Origin: Shigella phage vB_SboS_Gloob
Sequence record: OL615011
Direction: 5' to 3' (one strand)
DNA length: 64,000 nucleotides
Positions 5,386-62,375 of the stretch are shown in pieces (the first letter of the stretch is position 1; each line of letters opens with the position of its first letter). Below the pieces are notes generated by a model, which was given only the letters and a program-made list of their open reading frames with translations, searched no databases and was not told where the DNA came from. Made by a program: the position numbers and the translations under genes.

Positions 5386-5415
5386 TATACGGGGTTTATT
5401 GAAGAAGTAAACCCC
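5386..5415 (-). promoter_or_regulatory. sigma70-like early promoter overlapping a 10-bp-stem hairpin
   Basis: Minus strand reads GTTTAC-N17-TATACT; hairpin ACGGGGTTTA..TAAACCCCGT encloses the spacer; plus-strand flank is T-rich. Confidence 0.4.
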
Positions 5416-5436
5416 GTTTATTGAATAAATTTAAAA

Positions 5437-5673
5437 TTATTTGAAGCGATCCGGAAGGGTGTCGTGAACCTCGGCGCTCAGCACCAGGTACTTGCCGTCT
5501 TTAGTGGGGAAGCAATAGTCTTTCTTGATGTGTCGCATGTGTTCAGCCGTGGCCGCCACGCAGTCTTCGGTCACATCAGTCTTCTCACCGACCCACATGC
5601 TGGTCTTGGTGTTCAGGGTGCCCTGGAAGATTGTCCCAGTGAGTGGGCTTGCGCCGATCTTTTTAATTCTCAT
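5437..5673 (-). CDS. hypothetical protein (about 78 aa)
   Basis: ORF track. Confidence 0.4.
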   Translation of the reverse strand: MRIKKIGASPLTGTIFQGTLNTKTSMWVGEKTDVTEDCVAATAEHMRHIKKDYCFPTKDGKYLVLSAEVHDTLPDRFK

Positions 5674-6047
5674 AATTTCTCCCAAGTCCAGGTTTGAGCT
5701 TTAGCCTTTCCGATGACAGGAATATCCCGGTGCATATTCCGGAATGACCCAGTCTGATAGAAACTGATCTTCACCCGTTCATGGTTGACGCTCTGAGCCC
5801 ACACATGATGGCCGTCTGGGTAAAATTCACGTTCGTTACCGCCGTCTTTGGCCACCCGAGTTACGACATAAGTGTCGATCAGATAATCGAATACCGTGTT
5901 AGAATCCGGGGTGGCTTCGCCCTGGCTTGTGGTCCAATCACCAACGCAATTTGAGTAAAGAAGATGATTCGGAACCTCAGTCAGGACAGTCATTCCTTCT
6001 TTGATTTCGAACACATCACCAACTTGAAGCAGGGGTAAATTGCTCAT
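5670..6047 (-). CDS. hypothetical protein (125 aa)
   Basis: ORF track. Confidence 0.45.
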   Translation of the reverse strand: MSNLPLLQVGDVFEIKEGMTVLTEVPNHLLYSNCVGDWTTSQGEATPDSNTVFDYLIDTYVVTRVAKDGGNEREFYPDGHHVWAQSVNHERVKISFYQTGSFRNMHRDIPVIGKAKAQTWTWEKL

Positions 6048-6055
6048 AACAGACC

Positions 6056-6493
6056 TCAGCTAATGCGGAACAGATGTGGATAACCACCAGGATGGCCCTG
6101 ACCCGTAACGAACACATCGAACTTAGATCCTTTGATCAGGCCGGGGAGATTACCAGAGTCCAGCAGTTCGCGGATCTGATCCATCGCCAGCATCCAGTTC
6201 TTAGCAGGTTCAGCTTCAGCCTCTCCACGATTGAGGACGAGTTCACCTTCAGAATAATACTTCCCGCTGTCTTTCATATAGTACAGCTTGATATGGATGT
6301 ACTGAGGGGACGGGACCAAACGCCAGCCATCGTCAATCAGATCCTGGCGATCATTATCCAGGGACTGGTAATCGATCTCACCAGACGCCAGACCATAGCT
6401 GCGCATGTAGCGGAACTTCTCAACACGGTCTTTTACGTCAGAGATGAAGAACTCCTTCGTGGCAGGACTGATGAAAATGTATTTCTCTTTTGA
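6056..6493 (-). CDS. hypothetical protein (146 aa from MSKEKYIF)
   Basis: ORF track. Confidence 0.45.
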   Translation of the reverse strand, partial: SKEKYIFISPATKEFFISDVKDRVEKFRYMRSYGLASGEIDYQSLDNDRQDLIDDGWRLVPSPQYIHIKLYYMKDSGKYYSEGELVLNRGEAEAEPAKNWMLAMDQIRELLDSGNLPGLIKGSKFDVFVTGQGHPGGYPHLFRIS

Positions 6494-6513
6494 CATGATA
6501 TAGATCCTTCCTT

Positions 6514-6738
6514 TCAAAGAATGATGTGTTCGTCGATATCGGACTGCGTTGCAATCTCCCAGCGGACGACATTTTCGGTTGTGATGAAATCACGGTTCAG
6601 GTGAGAGGCTGGCACATACACCATCGTGTCGACCATGAAGTAACGCTGCTCGTTGTTCCAGGAGTCAACATAAGCCTCAATAAGGCATACTTCGATCACT
6701 TCGCCTTTCGGCTTCTTCACAGTCTTTTTCAGGTACAT
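6514..6738 (-). CDS. hypothetical protein (about 74 aa)
   Basis: ORF track. Confidence 0.4.
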   Translation of the reverse strand: MYLKKTVKKPKGEVIEVCLIEAYVDSWNNEQRYFMVDTMVYVPASHLNRDFITTENVVRWEIATQSDIDEHIIL

Positions 6739-6798
6739 GGCACAGCCCTCGGATAGTAGACGGGGCAATAATACCTCTCGCCCCGTTATTGAAAACTG

Positions 6799-6999: not shown

Positions 7000-7058
7000 T
7001 GTGATTTCCTCGATTAATAGAGAGGGTATTATTACCCTCATGCAATCTTTGAAACTCT

Positions 7059-7391: not shown

Positions 7392-7483
7392 GATTTGTAC
7401 TCCTGTTGTATGGTTGACTGTACAAGCATACAACAGGCAGGTGTATTGAACAACGCGGGTATTAAATCGACACGATAAAGGAA

Positions 7484-13625: not shown

Positions 13626-13678
13626 TATAGATTCTCCAAAAAGAGTTACACAATTCTAATTAGTGCCTTCAATGAAAT

Positions 13679-13696
13679 TGCCCTCCGAAGAGGGCA
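13679..13696 (-). terminator. hairpin with CUUCGG loop (GCCCTCTTCGGAGGGC) between sheath and tube genes
   Basis: Perfect stem with tetraloop; same 16-mer recurs at 26471. Confidence 0.5.
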
Positions 13697-13703
13697 TGTT
13701 CCA

Positions 13704-15651: not shown

Positions 15652-17862
15652 TCACCGTCTCAGCCATTCTTCCATGGACATGCCAGAGCGTTCGTCATAC
15701 ACCTGAACTCCACCAAACCCTGGGATACTCTCTATAGAGTGAGGATCTGGTGTTGAAAGCACACCCCCGAAAGGTAACATCTGAGATTCTTCCATCGCAG
15801 ATAATCTTCCTCTCATGTCCACAGAGATACTTGAGTTTGTGAGATCACTAAACCATTCTTGTTTCACCGCCCATGCATAGAGCACGAGAGGCATCACACA
15901 GTCATCATGACAACCATCATCGGCTTCATACCTTGTCCCAGTCCATACGAATGTACTGAGTTCATCTATCGTGTCCTGGTCATCAACCACCAGCATCTCA
16001 CGTTCGATAAGCGCCTTGAGGTTAGCACAACCATTCGAACGCACTTTCTTGTTCGTGTTGATGCCAGGCTCAGGGCGGCGACCACCAATTCGTTTGCCAG
16101 TACCCTTCGCATCTGTGGTAGTGAAGATGATCTCTGGGTATTCAATTTCCTGGTATAGAATTGTGATTACCTGGCCGCCCACGTCGTTGTTGGTTTCAAC
16201 CAGCATCGGACACGTGCCATATTTCTCGCCCATGTCGGCGATAGTGTATGCATACATCATTGGAGGTATCGTGTTGTTCCGATACTTGGCCGCAATCTTG
16301 TGAGGATAGTCTGTGATGTCCAAGATGGTAAGGACAGAGTAATCCCCCTCCACGCCTTTGCCTGTATCGGCGATACCCATGTAGATGCGCTTCGGATCGT
16401 AATCGTGATAGATCTTGGTGAACTCGTTCGGCTCCTGATAGAGTTTCGAGGTCATCTTGTCTAAGCACTTGGCCGGAATCAATGAACCGACGGAACCACG
16501 GAACTTGATACCGAATTCCTGATCGAAACGTGCATCGCCCAGCTTCGCCCTCTGTTTGGATTCCCAGTTCGGATCCTTGGTGTATGTTGGAACACGATAC
16601 CAAGGCACCTCTGTGAGTTTGAAGTCGTTGTACTGAGGGTGTTCTGGGTTCGCCTTGGTGACGATGTCGTAGAACAACCCGCGCTGGCCTTTCGGCGTAC
16701 TGGTCAAGATACAACGTGAAGTCTCTGCAGATGCAATCGCAGGGAATGTTGACTCCCAGAATTCAAAGTCATTTTCGATGAACGCCACTTCGTCCACATA
16801 CAGGAGCGATACAGATCGACCACGGATAGAGTCAGAAGATGTCGCATAAGCATAGATCTTCGATCCGTTTTCGAACTCGATGAGCGTGGAGCCGAACTTC
16901 TCACAACCCTGCTGGAGGAAGAATGGCAAATCCTGGTATGCCTTGCGGATACGGTCTAGGATTTCAATCGCCTGCTTCTCTTTGTTCGCCAGTACCGCGA
17001 TCTCTTTGTCAGAGTGGAACATCGCATACCAGAGCAGGAACGCTGCTACGACTGTCGTGTTGTGGCTGAGGAAGCCGTTGGTGTAGTAGCGCTGATCACT
17101 AGATTTCACCTGTAGGTCATACATGTGATGCATCTCACCAGTCTGCCATACCTCAACGACTTCTTCTAGACCTTCTTCGGTCATCAGCCGTGAACCAGCA
17201 ACCAGATCTTTAGCAAACACTTCCTTCATGTTCTGATTGAAGAACATGTGATCATCGGCCACGTTGATACGACGACCACTGGAAGTGATGACAACGTACT
17301 CTTGGTACAGCTTGGTCTTGTGCGCGGCGATGACAGGCACCCAGCCTTTGTCACAGCGAACAAAATAACGCTTGCCGAAGCGGCTGTCTACGAACTTATC
17401 GTGTTTGCCAAAGGCATTCAGTGGCTCGGCGTGATTTGGTCCCTCGAAGCGGCTGTGAAGCTCCTCGATGGTGACTTTAAACTCTTCTTGGCTGAACGTA
17501 TCGTAAACCTCGACGATGCTGTCACCCTTCACACACTTGCCAGACTGACGCGCCTGGACTACGGCGTTGAAGCGGTGATCCTGGAAGTCATGGAACAGCT
17601 GCTTCTGATAATCATGCATATCGAAGAGGATGAAGCCCTTATCGATGGTCGTGATCTTGTAGTAGTTGGCGGCGAAGTAATGAGCGTCCATCGCGCACTC
17701 AACGAACTCCGATTCTTGATCGTCGGTCAACATCAACTCTACACGAGGAGCACGCACAGACGGCTTGCGCATGAACGTCTGGTCCATACGCAATCTGACA
17801 TCATCAATCTTGAATCCCGTCTTTATCGGGGCATATTCAATATCACGCTTCTGATACGCCAT
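15652..17862 (-). CDS. terminase large subunit, gp17-like, interrupted by a mini-intein
   Basis: Walker A QARQSGK|C...HN|TTVVAAF; ATG at 17862 (track start 17871 is GTG). Confidence 0.9.
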   Translation of the reverse strand: MAYQKRDIEYAPIKTGFKIDDVRLRMDQTFMRKPSVRAPRVELMLTDDQESEFVECAMDAHYFAANYYKITTIDKGFILFDMHDYQKQLFHDFQDHRFNAVVQARQSGKCVKGDSIVEVYDTFSQEEFKVTIEELHSRFEGPNHAEPLNAFGKHDKFVDSRFGKRYFVRCDKGWVPVIAAHKTKLYQEYVVITSSGRRINVADDHMFFNQNMKEVFAKDLVAGSRLMTEEGLEEVVEVWQTGEMHHMYDLQVKSSDQRYYTNGFLSHNTTVVAAFLLWYAMFHSDKEIAVLANKEKQAIEILDRIRKAYQDLPFFLQQGCEKFGSTLIEFENGSKIYAYATSSDSIRGRSVSLLYVDEVAFIENDFEFWESTFPAIASAETSRCILTSTPKGQRGLFYDIVTKANPEHPQYNDFKLTEVPWYRVPTYTKDPNWESKQRAKLGDARFDQEFGIKFRGSVGSLIPAKCLDKMTSKLYQEPNEFTKIYHDYDPKRIYMGIADTGKGVEGDYSVLTILDITDYPHKIAAKYRNNTIPPMMYAYTIADMGEKYGTCPMLVETNNDVGGQVITILYQEIEYPEIIFTTTDAKGTGKRIGGRRPEPGINTNKKVRSNGCANLKALIEREMLVVDDQDTIDELSTFVWTGTRYEADDGCHDDCVMPLVLYAWAVKQEWFSDLTNSSISVDMRGRLSAMEESQMLPFGGVLSTPDPHSIESIPGFGGVQVYDERSGMSMEEWLRR
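17059..17535 (-). mobile_element. mini-intein (159 aa, Hint domain only) inside terminase P-loop
   Basis: Begins CVKGDSIVEV, block B TSSGRRINVADDHMFF, ends MYDLQV...GFLSHN followed by T; excision restores QARQSGKTT. Confidence 0.8.
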
Positions 17863-50606: not shown

Positions 50607-50609
50607 ATA

Positions 50610-51137: not shown

Positions 51138-51232
51138 GATGTATTTCCTTCTCTTCAGATTGTTGTTTGTTCGTACTACAATTAGAAGTATACGCCAGTT
51201 ATTGAAGAAGTAAACTTTATTCAATAAATATT

Positions 51233-51445
51233 TTAATAAATTTTGAACTCTGCTCCCTTGTACGTTGCCGACCCTCGTTCTATGAGACCGTCTGGGACAA
51301 TCACCTTTGTCGGCCAACCACCATCTGGAGCCTTAACAGTCAGGCGTGTCTTGTGATCACCCAGCTGTGTCTGTTCATAGATCCTTCCGCGCACTATCGT
51401 CGCCCCGCCTTGGGTGACGAGCAATCTCTTGTTTACCACTTTCAT
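51233..51445 (-). CDS. hypothetical protein (70 aa)
   Basis: ORF track. Confidence 0.4.
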   Translation of the reverse strand: MKVVNKRLLVTQGGATIVRGRIYEQTQLGDHKTRLTVKAPDGGWPTKVIVPDGLIERGSATYKGAEFKIY

Positions 51446-51463
51446 TCCCTAAACACCAAAAGA

Positions 51464-51483
51464 AAGGGGAGTTTCCTCCCCTT
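51464..51483 (-). terminator. terminator AAGGGGAG-GAAAC-CTCCCCTT plus U-run
   Basis: Immediately after stop at 51488. Confidence 0.6.
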
Positions 51484-51487
51484 GAAC

Positions 51488-52060
51488 TTATTTCTTCAGA
51501 TCAGGCCACGCACCAGAGGTCGCAGTAGACCCAGCTGGGGGAGCAGACTCAAGATCGGGAGCACCCGACTGAGTAACAACAGTGGGATCTTTCTGTACGA
51601 CCCGGACCCCAAACTGCTTGAGAGCATCCACAGCCTGGGCTTTTCGCCCGTTGCTTTTGTAGTGGTTGTAGCCTTTGATACCGAATGATGCACTAATTGC
51701 TGTCAATAATGAATAGGTATACCATTCAGGTGCGGTATCGAGCGCCTGGAGGCCACCGATTACTGCTTTGATGAAATCCCCTTTATGATACTCACCAGGG
51801 AACAAAATCAGTTCCACAACCGGAGCAGTCATGACGAGGATAGCGGGTACGGCTAACACGATAGTCCAGAATTCGTCTTTCCAAGATCCGCCGACTTCGG
51901 TGATCTTAGACAGCTCCCAATCTGAGGAGGACTTGATGGCCTCCAGCTTGACGTCGTGTTTGGCTTGAACAACTTCCCGCTTATATTGAATCAAATCAGT
52001 CCCGAGGTTCCAGAGTTGCTTGAGCGCCCCTGGGATCATACCAACGAGGGGGATTGCCAT
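51488..52060 (-). CDS. membrane protein (about 191 aa)
   Basis: AAGGAG SD; hydrophobic segment FWTIVLAVPAILVMTAPVV. Confidence 0.45.
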   Translation of the reverse strand: MAIPLVGMIPGALKQLWNLGTDLIQYKREVVQAKHDVKLEAIKSSSDWELSKITEVGGSWKDEFWTIVLAVPAILVMTAPVVELILFPGEYHKGDFIKAVIGGLQALDTAPEWYTYSLLTAISASFGIKGYNHYKSNGRKAQAVDALKQFGVRVVQKDPTVVTQSGAPDLESAPPAGSTATSGAWPDLKK

Positions 52061-52139
52061 AATAAACTCCTTGGTCAATGAATGGCTCTATGGTTAAATA
52101 TGCCCACGTGCTAACGGCACGGATAACCTGGAGAATTAC

Positions 52140-55139
52140 ATGACCGTTTTCTATACGAACGTTGCCCGTCGGGGCAATGACCTGTTGATTCGAATCGCAG
52201 ATGACATGGGTAATCGCCGTCTGTTGAAAAAGAAATTCGAACCCACTCTCTATTTACCCACGGCTGATTATTCAAATGTTGAAAAGGTCGGCTTGCTCAA
52301 TGAACCCCTGGTGGCCAAGCAGTTCCCTGACATGCGCACTGCTGACAACTACCTTGAAGAGTACAAGGAAGTCCAGGGCGCGGCCATCTATGGACAGACG
52401 GATTATGCATACCAGTTCATCGCCCACAGTTTCCCCGGGAAGATCGAACCGGATTACTCCAACATCCATATCGCCAACCTCGATATCGAAGTGTTCACCG
52501 CCGGGTGGAAAGACGGGGAGATGACCAAGGGTCCATTTCCTCATCCGACTATTGAGCAGCAGACGTTCAAAGGTAGCGAGGCACGCATCCGCCGCTTCCA
52601 TCAGCAGGTACTGGCCAACCATGACTTCATCCGTGAGCACTTTCCCAGTTCCTTTATCAGCAACAACGTGACCGACCAGTTCCCTATCATTGATAGCAAT
52701 GGCAAGATCACCCAGGACATGAATGCAGCGTTCCCTATCACGCTCATCCAGCTTCAGGACATGGCGACCAATAAGTTCATGGTGTGGGGTATGCCGTGCG
52801 CGAAGGATCGTGCGAAGTTCAGATACGATCCAGAAGACGCGGAGATCGGTGGACTTGAGGTGGAGTACAAGGAGTTTGTCACCGAGCAGGATCTGCTGCG
52901 ATCTTTCCTTGACTTCTGGTCACAGCGTCAGTTTGATGGCTGGACAGGCTGGAACATCGAGACGTTTGATAGCCCGTACCTTGTTGAGCGCATGAACCAG
53001 GTTCTGGGCGAAGCCGAAACATCTCGCCTCAGCCCGTGGGGAATCATCAAGAAGCGCACCATCCGCGATAAGAAGGGTGACATCACGACATATCAGTTCG
53101 TGGGCTGCCCTATGCTTGACTACATGCAGATCTACAAGAAGCACACGTACACCACGCGTGAGCGGTACTCTCTTGATTGGATTGCGTATTGTGAGCTGGG
53201 TGAGAAGAAGATGGACTACAGTGAGAGCAAGTCGCTCTTTGACCTGTACTTCAACGACTATGCCAAACACACCCGATATGGTATCAAGGACGTCAAGCTG
53301 GTATGGCGTCTTGAGCAGAAGCTGCGTTTGCTTCAGCTGATGTTCGTCCTTGCGTACCGCACCAAGTCCAACTATGAAGACGGCCTGGGTACAGTGGCTC
53401 CGTGGCTGGCCATGTGCTACTATCGTCTGTATGAGAAGGGGATAGTGCCTAAGATCCAGCGTGTATACGATGGTCCGACCGATTTTGAGGGCGCATACGT
53501 CATGGAGGTGACACCAGGAATCTACTTCTGGGTCTTCTCTGAGGACTTGAACTCCCTCTACCCTCACATCATCCAGCAATACAACCTCGGTCCTGAGACT
53601 ATCGTTGGCGACAAACACCAGCGCCGTGAGATCATTGAGGCTATGTGTGAAGAGCTGGCTGCTCAGATGAATAACATGGCAACGCCGATGCACAAACGTC
53701 GGTTGATGAAAGCCCTTCACGACAAACTGTTGCGTGCGATTGACGAACGCCTGCAGGTTGTTGATGAACTGGTTGCCCTGGGTGAGTTCCACTTTGAGAC
53801 CCTGCGCCGCTACAACGTGTCCTTCACGCCGAACGTTCAGTTCTTCAGCAACGAGAAGATGTCGTTCCTGTCTGAAATCATGCGTGGTATCTACAGCGAC
53901 CGTAAAGTAGAGAAAGCCAAGGGTCTGAAGTATGAGCAGTGGGCTGGCTGGTGTAAAGAGATGGCGAAGGGTGACTTCCATCTTGAATCTGCGATGAAGT
54001 CGCGCTTCTATGATCCAGAGTGGTATGAAGAGCACAAGAACATTGATCTTGATGCACTGACCGAAGTGATGAAGAAGTGGGAAGATCTGGGGGTTGCCCA
54101 AGATACTCTTCAGCAAGGTCTGAAGATCTTGATGAACGCAGGTTATGGTGCGATCTCAAACGTCTGGTTCAAAGAGTACTTCAACCTCAACATCGCCGAA
54201 GCCATCACAACGTCCGGTCAGCTGATCAACAAGTGGAACAAGCGCTACACCGATGACTATCTGAACAAGCTGTGCGGCACGACAGGCCAGGACTTCGTCA
54301 TCGCGGGTGATACTGACTCCAACTACATCTGCATTGAGCGTCTTGTCAAGCAGTTGTGGCCTGATGTTACTGACCATCATGCTATGGTTGATAATATCGA
54401 CCAATGGATCAAGGACAACTACCAGCCGAAGACCAATGAGTGGGCACAGCTTCTGTGTAACACCATGAACGGATTTGAACAGCGCATGGTGTGGGAGCGT
54501 GAAGTAATTGCATCAGCTGCCGTCTGGCGAGCCAAGAAGATGTATGCCATGGCCGTGTACGACAGTGAGGGTATCAAGTACGAGAAGCCGAAGATCAAGT
54601 TCAAAGGTCTGGAAGCCCGTAAGTCCACCACGCCGGAATGGTGTCGTGAGCGTCTTGTTAAGTGCTATGAGAAGATCCTGCTCGGCACCGAAGAGGAAGT
54701 ACAGACGCTCATCTCCCAGTACAAAGAGGAGTACATGAAGCTCTCTGTAGACGATATCGCCAAGGCATCCGGTGTGTCCGACATAGAGAAGTGTGTGGCC
54801 GCCGACGGCTCGTTCATCTCTGGTGCTCACTATGCTGCCAAGGCATGTGTGGGTTACAACCGCATGGTAGAGAAGAACGAAGACCTCGGCCTGCCGATGA
54901 TTGAGTCGGGTGATAAGGTCAACATGGTACTGCTGAAGAATGGCAACCCGTTTGGCCAGAATTACTTCGCATATCCTGAGTTCTTCCCCGAGGAACTGGG
55001 TATGGGTAAATGGGTGGATTACCATACAGCCTTTGAGAAGTCCTTCATCGACCCTATTCAGTCCATCCTTGACGTGGTCGGCTGGTCACACAAGCGTCGT
55101 GTGAACCTTCTTGCCATGATGCAAAAGAAGAAAGGTTGA
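52140..55139 (+). CDS. DNA polymerase, family B, T4 gp43-like (999 aa)
   Basis: Exo I NLDIEVF, motif A DLNSLYPHII, motif C IAGDTDS. Confidence 0.95.
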   Translation: MTVFYTNVARRGNDLLIRIADDMGNRRLLKKKFEPTLYLPTADYSNVEKVGLLNEPLVAKQFPDMRTADNYLEEYKEVQGAAIYGQTDYAYQFIAHSFPGKIEPDYSNIHIANLDIEVFTAGWKDGEMTKGPFPHPTIEQQTFKGSEARIRRFHQQVLANHDFIREHFPSSFISNNVTDQFPIIDSNGKITQDMNAAFPITLIQLQDMATNKFMVWGMPCAKDRAKFRYDPEDAEIGGLEVEYKEFVTEQDLLRSFLDFWSQRQFDGWTGWNIETFDSPYLVERMNQVLGEAETSRLSPWGIIKKRTIRDKKGDITTYQFVGCPMLDYMQIYKKHTYTTRERYSLDWIAYCELGEKKMDYSESKSLFDLYFNDYAKHTRYGIKDVKLVWRLEQKLRLLQLMFVLAYRTKSNYEDGLGTVAPWLAMCYYRLYEKGIVPKIQRVYDGPTDFEGAYVMEVTPGIYFWVFSEDLNSLYPHIIQQYNLGPETIVGDKHQRREIIEAMCEELAAQMNNMATPMHKRRLMKALHDKLLRAIDERLQVVDELVALGEFHFETLRRYNVSFTPNVQFFSNEKMSFLSEIMRGIYSDRKVEKAKGLKYEQWAGWCKEMAKGDFHLESAMKSRFYDPEWYEEHKNIDLDALTEVMKKWEDLGVAQDTLQQGLKILMNAGYGAISNVWFKEYFNLNIAEAITTSGQLINKWNKRYTDDYLNKLCGTTGQDFVIAGDTDSNYICIERLVKQLWPDVTDHHAMVDNIDQWIKDNYQPKTNEWAQLLCNTMNGFEQRMVWEREVIASAAVWRAKKMYAMAVYDSEGIKYEKPKIKFKGLEARKSTTPEWCRERLVKCYEKILLGTEEEVQTLISQYKEEYMKLSVDDIAKASGVSDIEKCVAADGSFISGAHYAAKACVGYNRMVEKNEDLGLPMIESGDKVNMVLLKNGNPFGQNYFAYPEFFPEELGMGKWVDYHTAFEKSFIDPIQSILDVVGWSHKRRVNLLAMMQKKKG

Positions 55140-55173
55140 TTCAATAAACCAAAGGGGGATATAATTCCCCCTG
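55136..55173 (+). promoter_or_regulatory. sigma70-like promoter TTGATT-N18-TATAAT with the -10 hexamer in the loop of hairpin AAGGGGGA..TCCCCCT
   Basis: Overlaps polymerase stop codon; also plausible as polymerase terminator. Confidence 0.4.
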
Positions 55174-55201
55174 TTAACCCTTTGACAAACAGGTGATTGA
55201 A

Positions 55202-55543
55202 ATGAAACTCAATAAGATTCTTCTGGTGTGTGCTCTGGCTTTCTCTACCACCGCATGCTCTACCCTTGTGGACGTTGCGTCTACTGTAGACCTTGACGCG
55301 CCGACGTTCACCAATGAGCAGGCCGTGTCTAAGATGGAAGATACCATCAAGGCTCATGCCGCTCTTGACAACACCACTCCTGGTCCATTACAGACCGTCT
55401 GCAACTATGACGATTCCATCCAGGAAGACGAAACCTACCACTGCACCACCCACGTGAAGCAGGCTTCCGTCGTTCTGTATGCGGATTGTACCGAAGAACA
55501 GTGCGTTGCTACGGGCTACGACAAAGTTGAGGAAGACAAATGA
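55202..55543 (+). CDS. putative lipoprotein (about 113 aa)
   Basis: MKLNKILLVCALAFSTTACS has a signal peptide and lipobox-like motif. Confidence 0.5.
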   Translation: MKLNKILLVCALAFSTTACSTLVDVASTVDLDAPTFTNEQAVSKMEDTIKAHAALDNTTPGPLQTVCNYDDSIQEDETYHCTTHVKQASVVLYADCTEEQCVATGYDKVEEDK

Positions 55544-56319
55544 ACAACCTGGTCTGTCTCTATGATATGAAATCAAAGGTCGGTGGTCTGTATCGCGTCC
55601 TCGTGGATGTTGACCTGACGCTGGTCGACAGCCTCTCCCCTTGGGTGCAGTGGTTCAACGAAGAGAACATCGCTGCCGCTGCTATTGCTACGGGGGAACA
55701 TAAGTCATATCAGTTCCAGCCGATCACCAAAGAGTGCTATATGGCTCATGCTGGCGACCTGGCTATTCTGATGCGAGAACGTGCACATCCGGCGTGGTTG
55801 ATACGCCGCGTGTACCTCGCTGGGCAATGGATGTATGCTCCTACAGGGCGTGATCCTATGGATTGGTGGCGTCGCCCTGACCTGTACGCCAAGATGAACC
55901 CGCTTCCAGGTGCTTACGAGTTCCTGGTGAATCTGAAGAAGATTCTGCTCGAAGACTTTGACAATGTTGAATTCATCGCAGTGTCCAAGTGTGAGCCGGA
56001 ACACGAGCGCAGCAAGCGCCAGTTTGTCTATGACAAGTTCCCTGGTATCTTCAACGGATTTGTCAGTACTGACGAAAAGCATCTGCTGGCAGGCGATGTC
56101 CTGATTGATGACAATCCGAAGTATGTTGAGCCGTGCGGCCTGAACAACATCTTCGTCATCTTTGTTCCTCAGGGCAATTATGAAAAACTGGATCTTTCGA
56201 ATTCGGAAGATATGCTTTATATTAAACCAGTAGAAGGCCAGAACCACTTCGACTTCCTGAATCACAATATTGTTGAAGTGGTGAACCGCTTGATTGGTCA
56301 TTATCAATACGTCCGATAG
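55540..56319 (+). CDS. HAD-superfamily hydrolase, 5'(3')-deoxyribonucleotidase-like (259 aa)
   Basis: Motif I VLVDVDLTLVD (DxDxT). Confidence 0.55.
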   Translation: MNNLVCLYDMKSKVGGLYRVLVDVDLTLVDSLSPWVQWFNEENIAAAAIATGEHKSYQFQPITKECYMAHAGDLAILMRERAHPAWLIRRVYLAGQWMYAPTGRDPMDWWRRPDLYAKMNPLPGAYEFLVNLKKILLEDFDNVEFIAVSKCEPEHERSKRQFVYDKFPGIFNGFVSTDEKHLLAGDVLIDDNPKYVEPCGLNNIFVIFVPQGNYEKLDLSNSEDMLYIKPVEGQNHFDFLNHNIVEVVNRLIGHYQYVR

Positions 56320-56328
56320 GAGGACATC

Positions 56329-56634
56329 GTGCAAGAACAATCCAAGTTTGGGGAAACCCCAGACAAGCGTTCCGGTGATAGCGATATGGATGGCGTGATT
56401 ATCCATGTCAACAACTTTATTCGCCAGCAGGAGACTCCGACTCCTATCGGCGCAGCCAAGGCTCTTCATGACGTACTGGTGGAGATCGGTCAGCGCTCTG
56501 AAGCGGATGAAATCTTCTATAACTTCGACGACCAGTATAAAGTGAAGTTTGAAGAGAATGGCCGCCCACAGGTTGCTGTATTCTGGGCACCATGGATGGG
56601 CGGCGTGAGCTGGCGTATTGAGGATATTGCATAA
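56329..56634 (+). CDS. hypothetical protein (101 aa, GTG start)
   Basis: AGGAGG SD 7 nt upstream of GTG. Confidence 0.4.
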   Translation: MQEQSKFGETPDKRSGDSDMDGVIIHVNNFIRQQETPTPIGAAKALHDVLVEIGQRSEADEIFYNFDDQYKVKFEENGRPQVAVFWAPWMGGVSWRIEDIA

Positions 56635-57551
56635 TGGCTAAAATAATTGTAGTGAAAGGAACCAGTGCTACGGGCAAGGGTACGAGAGTGGTTCAGTTCA
56701 TCGAATGGCTCCGTACGAAGCTGGAGCCTACCGAACTAACCTACACTATCGGCGACAAGACGCGTCCGTTTGGGCTGAAGTTTGAAGAGATGAAGTTAAT
56801 CTTCGTCGGCCAGTACACTGTGTCCAACAAATCTGGCCTGGCCTCCTGGACTTCCATGGATGCTATCCACGCGGCCACAGGCTCCGGCGATATCGCTCGT
56901 GACCTGGTCAAAGGCTGGCTGGCCCAGGGTTACACCCTGGTGTGTGAGGGCGAACCTCTGATGCTGTCGGATAAATGGCGTCCTGAATGGATGTTCAAGA
57001 ACTATCCGATTGAATCACTGTCACTGCTGTACTTTGCATACCCTGACCGCTATCAGTACGATGCCCGCATCCGTGGTCGCTCTGGTAAAGAAGCAGGGGA
57101 CTCCGGCTGGTCGCGCAACGAATCTTACTCCAAGGAGTTTGAGAAGTCGAAGGCCGAAATGCTGGCGCTGGGCTTTACTGTGGCTGTTGATGATTTCAGC
57201 GGACAGGATATCCTGTATAAAGCACCAGAGGCCAACACCCAGGAGTTCACGACCAAACAGCAGTCCGAGTTGGCGGTGCTCCCATACGACGCCCCGCTGT
57301 GGGTTGTGGGTATTGCGATTTGTCATCAGATACGCTCTGAACTGCGCGATGTTGACATGCATACCAAAGACTTCTACGCCTACTGCGAAACCAATCCGAT
57401 GACCCGTGAGGTCGGTGGCCGGGATCCTTTGGCGCACAGAGTCCCTGAGAAGCCGCAGAAGGCATCCAAAACTAAAACCAAGGCGAGCGCCCAGCCAGAA
57501 GCACCGAAGGCAGCGTCGCGCTCTCTCCTTGACCTGATGAAGAAGGGGTGA
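56634..57551 (+). CDS. P-loop kinase, candidate 5-hydroxymethyluracil DNA kinase (305 aa)
   Basis: Walker A VVKGTSATGKGT; association with polymerase and PLP-enzyme genes. Confidence 0.45.
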   Translation: MAKIIVVKGTSATGKGTRVVQFIEWLRTKLEPTELTYTIGDKTRPFGLKFEEMKLIFVGQYTVSNKSGLASWTSMDAIHAATGSGDIARDLVKGWLAQGYTLVCEGEPLMLSDKWRPEWMFKNYPIESLSLLYFAYPDRYQYDARIRGRSGKEAGDSGWSRNESYSKEFEKSKAEMLALGFTVAVDDFSGQDILYKAPEANTQEFTTKQQSELAVLPYDAPLWVVGIAICHQIRSELRDVDMHTKDFYAYCETNPMTREVGGRDPLAHRVPEKPQKASKTKTKASAQPEAPKAASRSLLDLMKKG

Positions 57552-57553
57552 TC

Positions 57554-57751
57554 ATGAAACGGTTGTCTAATTATCTGTTATTCGTCGGTCTGGTTATGGC
57601 AGCCGTTTCAATGTGCGCTGCCCTAGCCTATCATTTCACCCCTCTGGACTTAACAACCTCAGAGAAGTTGAACGTGACTGTGATGTACTGTATTGGCGCG
57701 GTGATGTCTATCGGCGCTGCTGGTTACAAAATATTCAAGGAACCAAAATGA
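57554..57751 (+). CDS. small membrane protein (about 65 aa, two predicted TM segments)
   Basis: ORF track; ATG at 57554. Confidence 0.4.
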   Translation: MKRLSNYLLFVGLVMAAVSMCAALAYHFTPLDLTTSEKLNVTVMYCIGAVMSIGAAGYKIFKEPK

Positions 57752-58104
57752 AAATTCAAATCCCTCGCGATGCTGTGGCTGTCGCAATTGACTACACCGG
57801 AAACGCCAAGCACATTACTGCTGTGCGCCTGATTCCTGAAAAGAACTGCGTGATCCCTCAGTTCCAGCTGAATGCCAACCCGTCGTCTAAAGACTTCGGT
57901 CAGTGGCTGCAAGCGGCTCCGTTCCGTACCCAGACGAATGCCCAGATGTTCATCTCGGGTAAGACTCACACTGCAGCCCGTCTGTGGTTCGTGACCGCTG
58001 ACCGTCGCTTTATCGATATGTGGGAACGCCCGATGGGGTTCGTGAAACCAGAAGACATTCAGCTGGCTCCTGAAGAGGAAGCGAAAGATGACGCATCTAT
58101 CTAA
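57748..58104 (+). CDS. hypothetical protein (118 aa)
   Basis: AAGGAA SD; ATG 57748 inside longer track ORF. Confidence 0.45.
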   Translation: MKIQIPRDAVAVAIDYTGNAKHITAVRLIPEKNCVIPQFQLNANPSSKDFGQWLQAAPFRTQTNAQMFISGKTHTAARLWFVTADRRFIDMWERPMGFVKPEDIQLAPEEEAKDDASI

Positions 58105-59314
58105 AATGCCGACGGGATATACACCCCCGGCTGAATGGAAGTACCCGATTGACCTGGCTGTTGACTATCGCAAGCCGGAGAATCGCATGTACCTGCTCAA
58201 GGCTTGGGTGGAGGCGCTGTCCTACACCGAAGAGCACAACCAGCAGATGCGTCTGATGGATTATGCGATCGAAGTCACAGAAGGCATCACGCAGATTGAG
58301 AAGATCGAGCGCAAAATCTGGATGTCGTTCCTTTGGGGCTGCTGTTACAACGCCATCGGACCGTGGACAATCTACAGTGAGTTCCCTGTACCTCCTCAGT
58401 CCAAAGAAGAGATGCAGCGCTTCTCTGATTGGTACAACCTGAACTTTGAACGCATGCGCTTCGATACCGATTGCCGTTACCGCAAGTCCAAGATGATCCC
58501 GTGTGTTCAGTCCTACATTGATTGGCTGGCTGGGCGCTCCCAGATGGATGCTTTCCGCCCGATGTTAGAATTGGATATTCCTGTACACCAATTCACGAAT
58601 TTGTGGGATACGGCGATGTCCTGGAAATACTTCGGCCGCCTGAGCGCCTGGAACTTCCTGGAAGCCCTGAACATGGTGTTTGGCAACATGTGGGAGATTG
58701 ACGTCCCTGGCTTCATGCTGCGTGACCGTGATGGTAGTGAATCCAACCGCAACGGTGCGGCGTTCTTGTCCAACCGTGACGACTGGGTGACTAAGCACGG
58801 GAAGAAAAAGATCAACGGCTGTCCTATCACGGATGAAGAGTGTGACATCCTTGAGGCCGACCTTGAGCAGGCGTTCCAGGATTGTGTGGCCGAGTTCGGG
58901 CATCTGACGTTCATCAATCGCCTGAACTTTGAGACCTCCGGTGCATGCTGGCTGAAGAAGTTCTTCCGTGAAAAGAACACCCGTTACATTGGTTGGGATG
59001 CCGAGCGTACCTGGGATGAGATCGACTACATGGAACGCATCTGGCCGGAGTACTCCTGCGCAGCGCTCTGGGAAGCCCGTTCACTCTGGCTACCAGATAC
59101 CCTGTTGTGCGAAAAGGCTCCTCCAGGGCACGTTCCAGGCGTCCAGAAGTGGAAGATGCCTGTGTTCTTTGAGACTGGCGTTCCTCTACATATCTGGCAT
59201 CTGCAAAAGGGTACGCGCTGGGAGCCTGGCCAGGTGTATCGAGAATTGGGTAAACCGAAGATTGATAAACCGAAGTCCAACAGCGTCAACCTCATGGCAC
59301 TCTTGAAACGCTGA
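58088..59314 (+). CDS. hypothetical enzyme-sized protein (408 aa), candidate DNA base-modification transferase
   Basis: Size and neighbourhood only; no motif recognised. Confidence 0.3.
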   Translation: MTHLSKMPTGYTPPAEWKYPIDLAVDYRKPENRMYLLKAWVEALSYTEEHNQQMRLMDYAIEVTEGITQIEKIERKIWMSFLWGCCYNAIGPWTIYSEFPVPPQSKEEMQRFSDWYNLNFERMRFDTDCRYRKSKMIPCVQSYIDWLAGRSQMDAFRPMLELDIPVHQFTNLWDTAMSWKYFGRLSAWNFLEALNMVFGNMWEIDVPGFMLRDRDGSESNRNGAAFLSNRDDWVTKHGKKKINGCPITDEECDILEADLEQAFQDCVAEFGHLTFINRLNFETSGACWLKKFFREKNTRYIGWDAERTWDEIDYMERIWPEYSCAALWEARSLWLPDTLLCEKAPPGHVPGVQKWKMPVFFETGVPLHIWHLQKGTRWEPGQVYRELGKPKIDKPKSNSVNLMALLKR

Positions 59315-59350
59315 TATAAATATCCTCGCCTATAAAGTGAGGATATTATC

Positions 59351-59518
59351 ATGTTACAAGATCTGTTGGTCTACGCACTTCCGGGTGTGGTTGTTGGATT
59401 CATCGCAGGTGCTCTGGTCTTCCGTAAACACGCGCAAGACGGTGAAGTGATTGTTCAAAAGGGTAAAGACATCCTGGAACAAATCGAAGCCAAACTGGAA
59501 GAGCTGAAGAAAAAGTAA
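59351..59518 (+). CDS. small membrane protein (55 aa)
   Basis: GTGAGGA SD; TM segment LVYALPGVVVGFIAGALVF; too short for the ORF track. Confidence 0.4.
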   Translation: MLQDLLVYALPGVVVGFIAGALVFRKHAQDGEVIVQKGKDILEQIEAKLEELKKK

Positions 59519-59545
59519 TCTGACTGCGATTGCGTTCTTCAATAA

Positions 59546-59585
59546 AGGGGAATGGGTTATTATTAGCCCGTTCCCCTTTCTTTTT
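59546..59585 (+). terminator. terminator GGGGAATGGG-TTATTATTA-GCCCGTTCCCC plus T-run; -10-like TATTAT in loop
   Basis: Preceded by GTTCTTCAATAAA; same architecture at 62342. Confidence 0.6.
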
Positions 59586-59600
59586 GCAAGGAAATACATC

Positions 59601-59813
59601 ATGGCAATGCAACGAATTGAAGATATGTCCCTACTGGATATGGAAGCGACTTTTGGTGATTACTTTGAGTCCACTCCGAAACAAAAAGACCCTCTGGTTG
59701 GCCGTCTGGTGGTTTCTGAAGCGTTCGCACAGAAAGTTCGCGAAGGTCTTCCACCTGAATATGGGTGCTTCCGTAATGGCGCTTCCGTTATCGTCATGGG
59801 TGAATCTAAATGA
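59601..59813 (+). CDS. hypothetical protein (70 aa)
   Basis: ORF track. Confidence 0.45.
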   Translation: MAMQRIEDMSLLDMEATFGDYFESTPKQKDPLVGRLVVSEAFAQKVREGLPPEYGCFRNGASVIVMGESK

Positions 59814-60196
59814 CACAGTCCGAATACAAACAGTACCTGTACGATCTGTTCATGAAAGAAACGGATGGTACACTCCACCCTAAGAAAGCCACTATCGTCG
59901 TGCTGTATTCACAAGGTGCCCTGTCATTCTCCTATCTTTTCAAAGAATTGGATCTGATGGGCATTGAATATAAAAAGCACATTACGCCAGAACGCACTCT
60001 GAAGCGCGCAACCGCTCACTGCGTCCACTCGGTGGCGACTATCATGTTCCGCCATCATATTACATTCGATGAAGCGCTGGACCCACAGTATCACGAAGAA
60101 CGCTGGGGACTGCTGTTGCATAACGGTGCCAAGCCTGAGCACAAAGATCAACTCCTTGGGATGACCAAGGCGCAACTCGTGGATGGTGTGTTATGA
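59810..60196 (+). CDS. hypothetical protein (128 aa)
   Basis: ORF track. Confidence 0.45.
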   Translation: MTQSEYKQYLYDLFMKETDGTLHPKKATIVVLYSQGALSFSYLFKELDLMGIEYKKHITPERTLKRATAHCVHSVATIMFRHHITFDEALDPQYHEERWGLLLHNGAKPEHKDQLLGMTKAQLVDGVL

Positions 60197-61308
60197 TCTA
60201 TCTCCTGTTTGGTGTGCCATTGATATTGGCCATCCTGTTTGTGGTCTACCACCGCAAGACCCATGAGCCGAAAGAGACTCTGATTGCGACGGCGATTGTG
60301 GTGGTGCTGTCCTGTCTGATTCAGGTCGGGGCTTATGCTGCGTTCTCCCTCGGCAGTTCAGGGGACGTTGAGATCCTGAACGGTTACGTCACTGGCAAAG
60401 AGCGCAATAAGGTGAGCTGCGAGCACTCGTATCAGTGCAACTGCTATTACACCACATCATGCTCCGGCTCCGGTAGCAGCAAGTCCTGCACCCGTACCCG
60501 TCATTGTAGTACCTGCTATGAGCATTCGTATGACGTGGACTGGGATGTGTTGACGACTGTTGGTAATCTGACGATTGACCGCATTGACCGCCGTGGTCTT
60601 GGCCAGCCGCCGCGCTGGGCGCAGGTTCAGATTGGTGAGCCAGCCGCCCGTGAGCACTCCTACATGAACTATGTGCTGGGCAACAAGGACTCTCTGTTCT
60701 CCCGCTCAGACCAGCAGTTTGCTGAGCGCTTCAAAGACAAGATTCCCAAGTACCCTGAGGTCTATGACTACTATCGTGTCACTCGTGTCCTGAACGTGTC
60801 CGGCCTGACTTTGCCAACCACATACTGGAACGACTACCTGAATGATGTTCTGAAGAAGCTGGGCGCAGCCAAGCAGGTGAACATCGTCTGGGTTGTCACA
60901 TCCGGCCAGCCAGTTGAATATTTCCAGGGCTTGGTCTATGCATGGGATGGCGGTAAAAAGAACGACGTTATCGTCGTGACCGACATCAGCAAAGATCTGA
61001 AGATCAATTGGGGTAAGAGCACTTCGTTCGCTGATGGTATGCACAACCGTGAACTTCACTCCCGCAACGGTATGGACCTGACTGGGCATGATATGGGTAT
61101 CGGCGTCATGACAGACGTTGTTGCCAACATCACCAAAGGCTACAACCGCGTTGAGATGAAGGAAATGGAGTACCTGAAGTGGCGGGAACTCAAGACCTGG
61201 GAAGTTGTGGTTGTTGTTCTGCTGGGCTGCTTGCCGTTCACCGCAATTTTCATATTGCAGCGAATGGAGTACAATGGTGGCCGTCGTCGTTATCCGTTTA
61301 AATTTTAA
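60193..61308 (+). CDS. Cys-rich integral membrane protein (371 aa)
   Basis: N- and C-terminal TM segments; 12 Cys within about 40 residues (CEHSYQCNCYYTTSCSGSGSSKSCTRTRHCSTCYEH). Confidence 0.5.
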   Translation: MIYLLFGVPLILAILFVVYHRKTHEPKETLIATAIVVVLSCLIQVGAYAAFSLGSSGDVEILNGYVTGKERNKVSCEHSYQCNCYYTTSCSGSGSSKSCTRTRHCSTCYEHSYDVDWDVLTTVGNLTIDRIDRRGLGQPPRWAQVQIGEPAAREHSYMNYVLGNKDSLFSRSDQQFAERFKDKIPKYPEVYDYYRVTRVLNVSGLTLPTTYWNDYLNDVLKKLGAAKQVNIVWVVTSGQPVEYFQGLVYAWDGGKKNDVIVVTDISKDLKINWGKSTSFADGMHNRELHSRNGMDLTGHDMGIGVMTDVVANITKGYNRVEMKEMEYLKWRELKTWEVVVVVLLGCLPFTAIFILQRMEYNGGRRRYPFKF

Positions 61309-61326
61309 TCAAAAGAGGAAGTAAGA

Positions 61327-61896
61327 ATGTCTCAATCTAAGGGTATTTCAACAGGATGGATCGTTGGTTTGGTTGTTCTGGCACTGGTGGTGGTCGGCTT
61401 CGGCACCGTGATCAGCTACTTCAACGACTTCAACCGCACTGAGCAGCAGGTCAAGAAGTTCAACAAAGACTCTGAGAACTATCTGAGCAACTACACGCTC
61501 AAGGTTCAGGAGACGGCGCAGATTCCTGACATGTACAAAGACGGCCTGAAGGAAGTGATCAAAGGCACGTTCGAAGGTCGTTATGGTGCCGATGGTTCCA
61601 AGGCGGTGATGCAGTGGATCCAGGAACAGAACATCCAGTTTGATTCAAGCCTGTACAAAGAGATTCAGGTGGTGATCAGTTCTGGCCGTGACGAGTTCCG
61701 TATCAGCCAGACCAAGAAGCTGGATATTTGCGCAATGTACGAAACCAAGCTGGCTCAGTTCCCTGGTTCGTTGATTGCTGGCATGTTCGGCTACCCGCGC
61801 ATCGATCTTGACAAGACCTGTCAGGTGGTGAGCGATACCCGTACCCAGGCTGCGTTTGACGCTGGGGTTCAGAAACCGATCAACTTCAAAGGCTGA
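61327..61896 (+). CDS. LemA-family protein (189 aa)
   Basis: N-terminal TM; FPGSLIAGMFGYPRID matches the LemA C-terminal signature as I remember it. Confidence 0.55.
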   Translation: MSQSKGISTGWIVGLVVLALVVVGFGTVISYFNDFNRTEQQVKKFNKDSENYLSNYTLKVQETAQIPDMYKDGLKEVIKGTFEGRYGADGSKAVMQWIQEQNIQFDSSLYKEIQVVISSGRDEFRISQTKKLDICAMYETKLAQFPGSLIAGMFGYPRIDLDKTCQVVSDTRTQAAFDAGVQKPINFKG

Positions 61897-61900
61897 TATC

Positions 61901-62326
61901 ATGAGCGTGAAACTCACTGAATCACTGACGCTGGACCAGCAGCAGGCGCTGTTAGACGAAGTGGTGATCTCTGCTGTCAAACAGGGGATCATCCGTGACG
62001 ACACACTGATCAACCGCCCGGAGATGATTCATCATCTGGCGGTGTGCCTGGGTGAGGCCAGCAACCCTCGCAAGAAGATCCGTATGTTCAAGGGCGGCGT
62101 GATCTATCCAAACGGGCGTTTCGGTTTCATTGAACCAGTGCTGAAGACCGACGGCACCCCAAACAATAATGGTGGTCATATCAAGACCTCTGTTCCAGTA
62201 ACGCCGTATACTGAAGGGGTCGATCAGCTGTCTTGGTTCGAGACAATCAACACCATCTATATCATGGCACCTGACGGAGAGCCTGTTCAGGATTTGCGAG
62301 GCGTCAAAGTAGAATCTGAAGACTAA
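61901..62326 (+). CDS. hypothetical protein (142 aa)
   Basis: ATG 61901 inside longer track ORF. Confidence 0.4.
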   Translation: MSVKLTESLTLDQQQALLDEVVISAVKQGIIRDDTLINRPEMIHHLAVCLGEASNPRKKIRMFKGGVIYPNGRFGFIEPVLKTDGTPNNNGGHIKTSVPVTPYTEGVDQLSWFETINTIYIMAPDGEPVQDLRGVKVESED

Positions 62327-62341
62327 TCGTTCTTCAATAAA

Positions 62342-62375
62342 AGGGGATAGGGTATTATTGCTCTATCCCCTTTTT
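62342..62375 (+). terminator. terminator GGGGATAGGG-TATTATTG-CTCTATCCCC plus TTTTT
   Basis: Preceded by GTTCTTCAATAAAA. Confidence 0.6.

Follow-up and report, generated by a model that had tools for sequence, protein, structure and literature searches.

Gene layout and the recurring element

The window analysed here is the whole 64,000-nucleotide stretch of Shigella phage vB_SboS_Gloob (sequence record OL615011), and its subject is a recurring intergenic element in which a short box precedes a -10 hexamer that is often enclosed in a GC-rich hairpin. This element is real, strongly conserved and non-random. In a megablast search of positions 50000-64000 against the GenBank phages, the window was placed among the ViI-like phages of the family Ackermannviridae, genus Agtrevirus. 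The Salmonella phage SKML-39 matches these positions at 96% identity over 98% of the query, the Shigella phages MK-13 and Ag3 match at 95% identity, and the 284 related records come from phages of Salmonella, Klebsiella, Escherichia, Dickeya and other hosts. The gene map of the window is the SKML-39 annotation transferred onto it. Its gene blocks are given with the individual elements in Table 1.

A box at a fixed distance from the -10 hexamer

The initial annotation had cited five sites at which a -35-like hexamer and an adjoining box stand upstream of a TATAAT-like hexamer. All five are present as described, and motif counts and shuffles place the recurrence of the element beyond chance. The invariant part is the box, TTCAATAA, at 12 bp from the -10, not the -35-like hexamer. 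In addition, the five sites are not all of one type: the three on the plus strand belong together (class A), and the two on the minus strand form a different class (class B).

TTCAATAA occurs 13 times in the window against 2.1 copies expected. The exact arrangement TTCAATAA-N12-TAnnnT is found at seven sites, one on the minus strand (6768-6793) and the others starting at 40692, 42066, 44106, 55140, 59538 and 62333. When up to one mismatch is allowed, there are 13 matches against 0.81 expected, a count reached in none of 100 shuffles. The -10 hexamers of the exact sites are near consensus (TATTAT three times, TATAAT twice, TATAGT and TATGAT once each). All seven sites are intergenic and oriented toward the next gene, with a start codon in the same orientation 30-95 nt downstream. 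The same 12-bp register is kept at three sites with a degenerate box, namely TTCAAAGA at 7046-7053 and TTCAATAC at 7443-7450 on the minus strand and TTCAACAA at 46312. The distance from the box to the -10 is exactly 12 bp in the seven exact sites and in all relatives, and 11-13 bp in degenerate members. The members at 6760-6793, 7022-7053 and 7400-7450 on the minus strand, and at 40692-40717, 42066-42091, 44106-44131 and 46312-46356, are additional to those of the initial annotation.

With the predicted +1 set 7 nt past the -10 hexamer, the start would be a purine in eight of the nine sites with a correctly placed box. It would lie 23-34 nt before the start codon at six of the seven exact sites, and 27-34 nt before it at the degenerate sites 7450 and 46312. 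For the cassettes at 6760-6795, 7400-7450 and 46312-46356 it would be at ~6761, ~7418 and ~46344. The predicted 5' untranslated regions are 20-34 nt long, excepting 44106, which overlaps the start of an open reading frame (ORF), and 42066, which is followed by no ORF. Relative to the predicted +1, the box spans about -32 to -25. The genes downstream of class A sites have DNA-metabolism and tRNA-type functions.

A generic sigma-70 scan scored 55136 highest (10/12), followed by 6795, 5411 and 51214 (9/12 each). These four sites match at least 4/6 in both hexamers at a spacing of 16-18 bp; the sites at 59538, 62333, 40692 and 44106 do not. The best -35 matches of class A reach 2-4/6, and the conserved box stands where a -35 would be. 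With a 17-bp spacing, a full -35 hexamer would need three more bases, and these are not conserved. The box itself forms one half of a near-palindrome, TTnTT-C-AATAA.

Three further lines were set aside. Over-representation of TTCTTC was dropped as evidence, whole-genome k-mer counts being dominated by codon bias; TTCTTC alone is uninformative because codon-biased GAAGAA on the other strand reads TTCTTC. A search of IMG/VR for TTCAATAA-N8-16-TATAAT gave scattered single hits among the matches listed and did not inform on taxonomic distribution. A reading of the box as an IHF site was dropped, since no TTR stands 4 bp downstream.

Table 1. Promoter-like cassettes and gene blocks of the window. 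dG, folding free energy in kcal/mol; +1, predicted transcription start; SD, Shine-Dalgarno sequence.
Feature	Position	Strand	Promoter-like parts	Hairpin	dG	z	Predicted +1 and context
Class A cassette after DNA polymerase gene	55136-55172	+	TTGATT-18-TATAAT, 10/12 in sigma-70 scan; box TTCAATAA 55140-55147; -10 TATAAT 55160-55165	55153-55172, AGGGGGA/TCCCCCT, -10 is the loop; no T-run	-14.1	-1.9	~55172, 30 nt ahead of ATG 55202
Class A cassette	59534-59588	+	GTTCTT-18-TATTAT; box 59538-59545; -10 TATTAT 59558-59563	59544-59579, encloses -10, then T-run CTTTCTTTTT; terminator-like, 16 pairs	-26.1	-6.0	~59570, in 3' arm
Class A cassette	62329-62379	+	GTTCTT-18-TATTAT; box 62333-62340; -10 TATTAT 62353-62358	62339-62374, encloses -10, then TTTTT after CCCC	-23.9	-6.0	~62365
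Class A cassette	6760-6795	-	TTTTCA-16-TATTAT; box 6786-6793; -10 TATTAT 6768-6773	6760-6786, ACGGGGCGA/TTGCCCCGT, -10 in 9-13-nt loop; no T-run	-15.6	-3.0	hypervariable region
Class A cassette, degenerate	7022-7053	-	TTCAAAGA 7046-7053, N12, AATAAT 7028-7033	7022-7039 (GAGGGTA/TACCCTC), encloses AATAAT	-12.5	-4.2	
Class A cassette	7400-7450	-	TTCAATAC 7443-7450, N12, TATGCT 7425-7430	7400-7440, 11-bp stem; 5' arm holds -10, 3' arm holds SD of next gene	-19.1	-4.1	
Class A cassette	46312-46356	+	TTCAACAA 46312-46319, N12, TAAAAT 46332-46337	46323-46356, -10 TAAAAT at junction of 5' arm and loop	-14.6	-4.3	
Class A promoter (predicted)	40692-40717	+	TTCAATAA-N12-TATAAT	none			~40724, 30 nt ahead of ATG 40754; divergent intergenic region
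Class A promoter (predicted)	42066-42091	+	TTCAATAA-N12-TATAGT	weak	-6.6	-1.0	tRNA-like region
Class A motif	44106-44131	+	TTCAATAA-N12-TATGAT	none			
Class B cassette	5384-5436	-	-35 GTTTAC 5407-5412; 17-bp spacer with TTCTTCAATAA; -10 TATACT 5384-5389	5389-5417, spans -35 and spacer, not -10	-14.0	-4.5	AT-rich palindrome TTTATTCAATAAA upstream; conserved leader and SD downstream
Class B cassette	51187-51232	-	-35 GTTTAC 51210-51215; TTCTTCAATAA in spacer; -10 TATACT 51187-51192	none			TTTATTGAATAAA upstream; conserved leader and SD downstream
Late structural gene block	1-40404	-					
Gene block including four tRNAs	40.7-49.4 kb	+					
Short gene block	49.5-52.1 kb	-					
Gene block headed by DNA polymerase gene	from 52140	+					

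Hairpins around the -10 hexamer

Eight cassettes of classes A and B carry hairpins, with free energies of -12.5 to -26.1 kcal/mol and z-scores of -1.9 to -6.0. A strong hairpin encloses the -10 at four of the seven exact sites and at the three degenerate-box sites. With enclosure defined as at least six pairs in a fold of -15 kcal/mol or lower, the four of seven exact sites compare with 3% of the 1277 TAnnnT hexamers in the window (binomial P ~3e-5). Two looser measures were discarded: a contiguous-stem metric that admitted G-T pairs had a null rate of 20% and missed hairpins with large loops, and a lax criterion based on minimum free energy had a null rate of 18%. No hairpin was found at 40692 and 44106, and the one at 42066 is not significant.

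The loops of the cassettes measure 6-13 nt, which is just enough for a hexamer, against 4-7 nt (GNRA/UUCG-type) in the plain terminators of the window. A U-run follows only 59544-59588 and 62339-62379, and the stems are GC-rich with 10-16 pairs. Three hairpins had been taken for terminators of the upstream gene in the initial annotation; the T-run bears this out for 59544-59579 and 62339-62374, and its lack speaks against it for 55153-55172. By its sequence, 59534-59588 is a canonical predicted intrinsic terminator with a predicted promoter nested in it. A terminator scan lists 59544-59588; it misses 62339-62379, since it runs the stem on into the AAAA/TTTT flanks.

Hairpins follow a co-directional coding sequence at all 12 hairpin-bearing sites and are absent at three sites preceded by a divergent gene or by tRNA-like DNA. 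This association has one exception, SKML-39 39041 (Fisher ~0.007). At most loci the sense-strand RNA folds better than the antisense RNA because of G-U pairs.

Two long hairpins, at 7400-7440 on the minus strand and 47099-47138 on the plus strand, hold the SD of the next gene (CAGGAG) in the 3' arm and a -10-like hexamer in the loop or 5' arm. It is possible that read-through RNA hides the ribosome-binding site at these two places and that RNA from the nested promoter leaves it free, which would add control of translation to the cassette design.

Conservation in Ackermannviridae

For comparison, ~21-kb loci from 22 Ackermannviridae genomes of several genera were collected by three protein-anchored IMG/VR searches. 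Across these genomes the box, the -10 and their 12-bp spacing do not vary, while the spacer sequence does. All 19 genomes from which the loci orthologous to 55140, 59538 and 62333 were recovered retain the box and the -10 there, 12 bp apart. At all three loci the segment from the box to the -10 is the most conserved 30-nt sliding window within 360 nt on either side, with an identity of 0.94-0.96 against 0.5-0.85 in the flanking genes. At 40692, ATTCAATAA and TATAAT are unchanged in 13 distinct relatives; of the 12 spacer columns, only 2-3 do not vary. Across ~200 GenBank records from several genera, the 82-bp intergenic cassette at 59519-59600 shows 95-100% identity, and it is called a 'terminator' wherever it is annotated.

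The stems change in ways that preserve the structure. In the Klebsiella-phage group, one G is lost from GGGG together with one C from CCCC, a compensating pair of changes, and G-U pairs switch to G-C pairs between orthologous stems. A distant genome (L025) has a different 10-bp stem, GGGGTTACAG/CTGTAACCCC, around TATGAT in the same position and register; in direct comparison with the stem of the window, seven pairs are changed on both sides. At another locus, two genomes (L023 and L024) carry hairpins of the type GGCGGT-TATAAT-AGCCGCC. The layout is in this way retained at independent loci and in distant relatives whose stems are unrelated in sequence.

SKML-39, the closest complete genome, was surveyed whole. 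It contains 28 copies of TTCAATAA, and their spacing to TAnnnT peaks at 12 (eight cases, with at most three at any other spacing). Each of its 13 class A sites, defined by a box with up to two mismatches and N11-13, has an annotated gene in the same orientation 30-95 nt downstream. The reverse test, which started from hairpins and also allowed up to two mismatches in the box, found 41 hairpins with TAnnnT in the loop. Ten of them have a box 11-13 bp upstream, against ~0.5 expected (P ~8e-11). The 'terminators' Torf069, Torf131, Torf138, Torf152 and Torf248 of the Ag3 paper are among these hairpins, Torf248 being the 59534 cassette. As promoters, that paper has only Porf237 (the 55136 site), Porf138 (a class B-like site) and the overlapping pair Porf067/Torf069.

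Variable genes adjoin cassettes, clearly so at 5.0-5.4 kb and at 6.5-7.75 kb. The latter stretch, which holds three cassettes and small ORFs, was found in only 1-4 relatives, and alignment breakpoints pile up at 5320, 51120 and 59560. Only 3-5 of 12 cassettes lie at breakpoint clusters, and 55140, 62333 and 40692 stand in fully syntenic DNA.

Class B sites

The two minus-strand sites share the arrangement GTTTAC-N17-TATACT with TTCTTCAATAA within the spacer, 6 bp from the -10, and their conserved leader is ~55 nt long. Their -35 hexamers are preceded by a perfect 13-bp palindrome, TTTATT(C/G)AATAAA (TTTATTCAATAAA at 5417-5436 and TTTATTGAATAAA at 51216-51232). The class A box TTCAATAA is one half of this palindrome, which might bind a protein dimer or act as an UP-like element. 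The class B cassette at 5384-5436 is present in 18 relatives, and the gene just downstream (5028-5336) in none of 22. In a plausible scheme, class B would be immediate-early and class A delayed-early or middle.

Discussion

We consider it probable that these elements are promoters for host RNA polymerase nested in terminator or attenuator hairpins, and that they are the Ackermannviridae counterpart of the PeSL (promoter-early stem-loop) cassettes of T4-like phages. The motif with its exact spacing, placement and conservation, the hairpins and the U-runs are observed; promoter activity, termination and transcription start sites are here inferred from sequence. The elements would be pre-replicative promoters at which the host RNA polymerase core with sigma-70 reads the near-consensus -10, and the family-specific box TTCAATAA, exactly 12 bp away, would serve upstream recognition. 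At sites that directly follow the end of a co-directional gene, GC-rich inverted repeats flank the -10, and RNA coming from that gene would fold into a hairpin with the -10 sequence as its loop. The hairpins that bear a U-run (59544-59588 and 62339-62379) would be intrinsic terminators of the upstream gene; those without it (55153-55172, 6760-6786 and 7022-7039) would more likely act as attenuators or 3'-end stabilisers. A transcript from the nested promoter would start ~7 nt past the -10, in or after the 3' arm. Such a transcript would lack the 5' arm and would therefore escape termination. The inability of this transcript to form the hairpin, together with the ability of the upstream RNA to do so, would explain why hairpins track upstream co-directional coding sequences. 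One cassette of ~40 bp would thus insulate neighbouring genes and reset transcription. Class B may be built likewise, with the hairpin at a different position. The coupling of termination and initiation proposed in the initial annotation draws support from this anatomy, from conservation and from the PeSL precedent, its terminator part in at least two cases. As to the 'early/middle' label used there, early and middle are both possible from sequence: the -35 is weak, and a distance of 12 bp from box to -10 is the geometry of an activator-dependent promoter of the T4 middle type.

Several points weigh against promoters nested in terminator hairpins. In the literature searched, we found no transcription start site, 3'-end, RNA-seq or reporter data for any Ackermannviridae phage. 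The genomic DNA of Ackermannviridae carries hypermodified thymidine (PMC5889632), which may affect recognition of the -10. The sites at 59538 and 62333, with their poor -35 region, are missed by the generic sigma-70 scan, and the U-run of an intrinsic terminator is missing at the three hairpins named above. Covariation within orthologous stems is sparse because the orthologous sequences are too similar. At 44106-44142 on the plus strand, the box and TATGAT are invariant in relatives, and the -10 overlaps the ATG(s) of a conserved small ORF at ~44127-44327, so the predicted start falls inside the downstream ORF. This overlap makes the role of the site doubtful. The 44106 promoter may serve the downstream tRNA-Asn, or the small ORF may be translated from upstream transcripts only.

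A different reader of the box would refine, rather than exclude, the explanation given above. TTCAATAA might be the binding site of a putative phage factor that replaces -35 recognition, as MotA and AsiA do, so that the sites would be activator-dependent 'middle-type' promoters and nesting in terminators would time a change from read-through early on to re-initiation that depends on the factor. We regard this as possible, though on balance unlikely. The box is invariant in eight of eight positions at exactly 12 bp from the -10, with a spacing tolerance of only 11-13 bp; the unconserved would-be -35 bases, the best -35 matches of 2-4/6 and the DNA-metabolism and tRNA-type downstream genes fit such a scheme, as does the relation of the box, half of a near-palindrome, to the perfect palindromes upstream of class B promoters. 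The T4 MotA box, by Hinton's account of 2010, reportedly lies 12 +/- 1 bp from the -10, centred near -30. Cassettes built on Mot boxes, named PmSL, exist in phage nt-1 (PMC4122927). However, MotA, AsiA, Alt and ModA are reported to be absent from ViI-like phages, in which no recognisable form of them is described (PMC3184105; no profile search of the genome was run here). The box is also unrelated in sequence to TGCTT, a spacer of 16 bp would give TTTTCA or TCTTCA as a weak but usable -35, and no candidate binding protein was identified. The narrower proposition that TTCAATAA is the operator of an unrecognised phage transcription factor, functionally analogous to sigma appropriation by MotA and AsiA, seems to us doubtful. 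If it were true, the operator would delimit the class of early/middle promoters that, as they report, escaped the CBA120 authors, and each cassette would be a temporal switch that halts host-type read-through and restarts transcription only with the factor present.

The cassettes might primarily be recombination modules, kept as short homologies for the swapping of adjacent small genes, with regulation secondary. The gene at 5028-5336, missing from all 22 relatives beside a class B cassette present in 18, the 6.5-7.75 kb region with its three cassettes, the breakpoints and the 97-100% identity of 59519-59600 between genera whose genomes are ~60-70% identical would all suit this, but most cassettes lie away from breakpoint clusters, some of them in full synteny, and recombination alone would explain neither the exact 12-bp spacing nor why the loop holds the -10; we consider it improbable. 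Plain terminators, whose AT-rich loops merely resemble TATAAT and whose upstream AATAAA is the A-tract of a bidirectional terminator, would involve no promoter at all. In keeping with this, GenBank records and the Ag3 paper label the 59544 hairpin only as a terminator, A-tracts and T-tracts flank the stems, and 55153-55172 looks like a terminator on the minus strand. The box and the -10 at 12 bp are nonetheless equally invariant where there is no hairpin (40692, 44106 and SKML-39 39041), the plain terminators of the window do not have hexamer-holding loops, three of the hairpins are without the U-run that a terminator needs, and neither the constant distance to the start codon nor the enrichment of the box upstream of loop hexamers would be expected. 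This makes plain terminators very improbable. Hairpins in the DNA itself have the least to commend them, and we give them hardly any credence. Here a cruciform in supercoiled DNA would hide the -10, much as the initial annotation had supposed in proposing that the hairpin occludes the -10 until it melts, or would present it single-stranded, as in promoters of the N4 virion RNA polymerase. What this has in its favour is that the -10 precisely occupies the loop at many independent loci. The hairpin is, however, nonexistent in duplex DNA, 6-13-nt loops and stems containing G-T pairs disfavour extrusion, and three or four good box/-10 sites have no repeat at all. Promoters of the N4 type have 3-nt loops and require the virion RNA polymerase, and we know of no such polymerase in Ackermannviridae. 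Occlusion in DNA is also disfavoured by the better folding of the sense RNA, which G-U pairing favours, and by hairpins that track upstream co-directional genes; the hairpin would therefore act in RNA coming from upstream.

The closest parallel to the cassettes lies in the PeSL cassettes of the T4-like phages RB49/phi1, PST/T4 and nt-1/KVP40 (Arbiol et al. 2010, PMC2839356; Comeau et al. 2014, PMC4122927). A PeSL consists of a strong sigma-70-like promoter and a GGGG...CCCC stem-loop, the stem-loops being described as 'effective transcription terminators'; the stem-loop mostly falls between -35 and -10 or overlaps the latter, and PeSLs cluster in hyperplastic regions and have been linked to modular gene shuffling (PMC2839356; PMC4122927). 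Like PeSLs, our cassettes are repeated intergenic units of a predicted sigma-70-type early promoter, a stem-loop and an SD/ATG with a predicted terminator or attenuator role, and part of them lie in variable regions near small orphan genes. Positional subclasses also recur, with hairpins that enclose the -10, span the -35 and spacer (5389-5417) or stand just upstream of the -35 (SKML-39 63365). The two differ in that PeSLs belong to Straboviridae and have a near-consensus TTGACA, in contrast to the TTCAATAA box at a fixed 12 bp in class A. The PeSL -35 is TTGACA in RB49 and TTTACW in PST/T4, 17 bp from the -10; class B has GTTTAC at 17 bp, and class A matches 2-4/6. Class A shows no evident AT-rich UP region. 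Promoter and terminator activities of PeSLs were demonstrated by lacZ reporters in RB49/phi1, and recombination between PeSL cassettes into mini-circles by inverse PCR (PMC2839356); in our cassettes the two activities are predicted. We think it likely that the cassettes are PeSL-like composite promoter-terminator elements and extend this design to Ackermannviridae.

Other known systems are matched in part. Class A resembles T4 middle promoters and the PmSL of vibriophage nt-1 in its TAnnnT -10, in a box near -30, 12 +/- 1 bp upstream, and in its lack of a good -35, and it shares with the PmSL the fusion to stem-loops; its box differs from the T4 sequence (a/t)(a/t)(a/t)TGCTT(t/c)A. Class B resembles T4 early promoters (GTTTAC-N17-TATAAT with an A/T-rich upstream region) in GTTTAC, the 17-bp spacer, TATACT and the AT-rich upstream DNA, and departs from them in TTCTTCAATAA within the spacer, TTTATT(C/G)AATAAA upstream and the ~55-nt leader. 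The GC-rich stems and U-runs of 59544-59588 and 62339-62379 are those of intrinsic terminators, from which the cassettes differ by loops that hold a functional-looking -10 and by other members without a U-run. The hairpin promoter of N4, with a stem of 5-7 bp and a 3-nt loop, is unlike the 6-13-nt loops with a sigma-70 -10 found here.

Ackermannviridae such as ViI, CBA120, LIMEstone, Det7 and their relatives are widely used as biocontrol and therapy phages. The authors of the CBA120 paper (2011) state that informatics did not reveal the early promoters of these phages and that the phages have neither the early nor the middle regulators of T4. The consensus of box and -10, with ~13-15 sites per genome, offers a concrete, testable map of predicted promoters and would correct public annotation of the cassettes as terminators only. 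A 'terminator with a promoter inside' would then reach beyond the T4-like family, and phage engineers could use the cassettes as compact parts that combine insulator and promoter. The missing regulator, if any exists, might be sought through the fixed 12-bp geometry and the poor -35 that goes with it. Literature searches with the motif string returned nothing relevant. Adriaenssens and colleagues reportedly mention 'conserved regulatory sequences' in the genus in the abstract of a 2012 article in Arch Virol, and an earlier description of the box is possible.

Other features of the window

The 42066 promoter apparently drives a predicted structured RNA of ~85 nt (42092-42190 on the plus strand). 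Its basal stem, CUGUUUG/CAAACAG, is conserved, three or four pairs show compensatory changes among nine relatives, and its end is GGUUUUCGUU. The RNA matches nothing in Rfam, and it is not among the tRNAs called. It lies in a region of ~4 kb (41531-45543, plus strand) that is poor in ORFs and differs strongly among relatives. ARAGORN and Rfam place four tRNAs there (Met, Asn, Tyr and Ser), and the Rfam search found nothing beyond them. Extra T-arm-like sequences occur in the same region, for example GGTTCGATTCCACACCCTCGCCA right before 42066, which suggests degenerate or unusual tRNAs.

Late-promoter-like motifs, CTAAATA/TATAAATA, are fused to hairpins at 3939-3976, 31242-31440, 33463-33518 and 36522-36573 on the minus strand and at 48445-48483 and 59315-59350 on the plus strand. 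The 3' end of the motif (ATACCCC) is the 5' arm of ATACCCC...GGGGTAT stem-loops, such as cTAAATAcccccatcatccatgggggtattttct, and at 59315-59350 the SD lies inside the 3' arm. Judged by these fusions, late promoters seem to share the design of a promoter inside a hairpin.

Insertion or deletion points against close relatives lie at 13626-13703, 17823-17862, 56634 and 58073-58088. The window lacks the homing endonuclease genes gp011 and gp014 of SKML-39, the SegD-like gene of Ag3 and, at 58073-58088, a gene for a small membrane protein (SKML-39 gp183). The tail-spike and tail-fibre genes at 26493-36521 on the minus strand have only their N-terminal ~230-1260 nt in common with SKML-39, at 84-95% identity, and are otherwise unrelated to it. 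This divergence is the expected swapping of host-range modules. Two of these genes are preceded by one shared repeat, cactaaataccccatattggcaaatcctctatggggtat.

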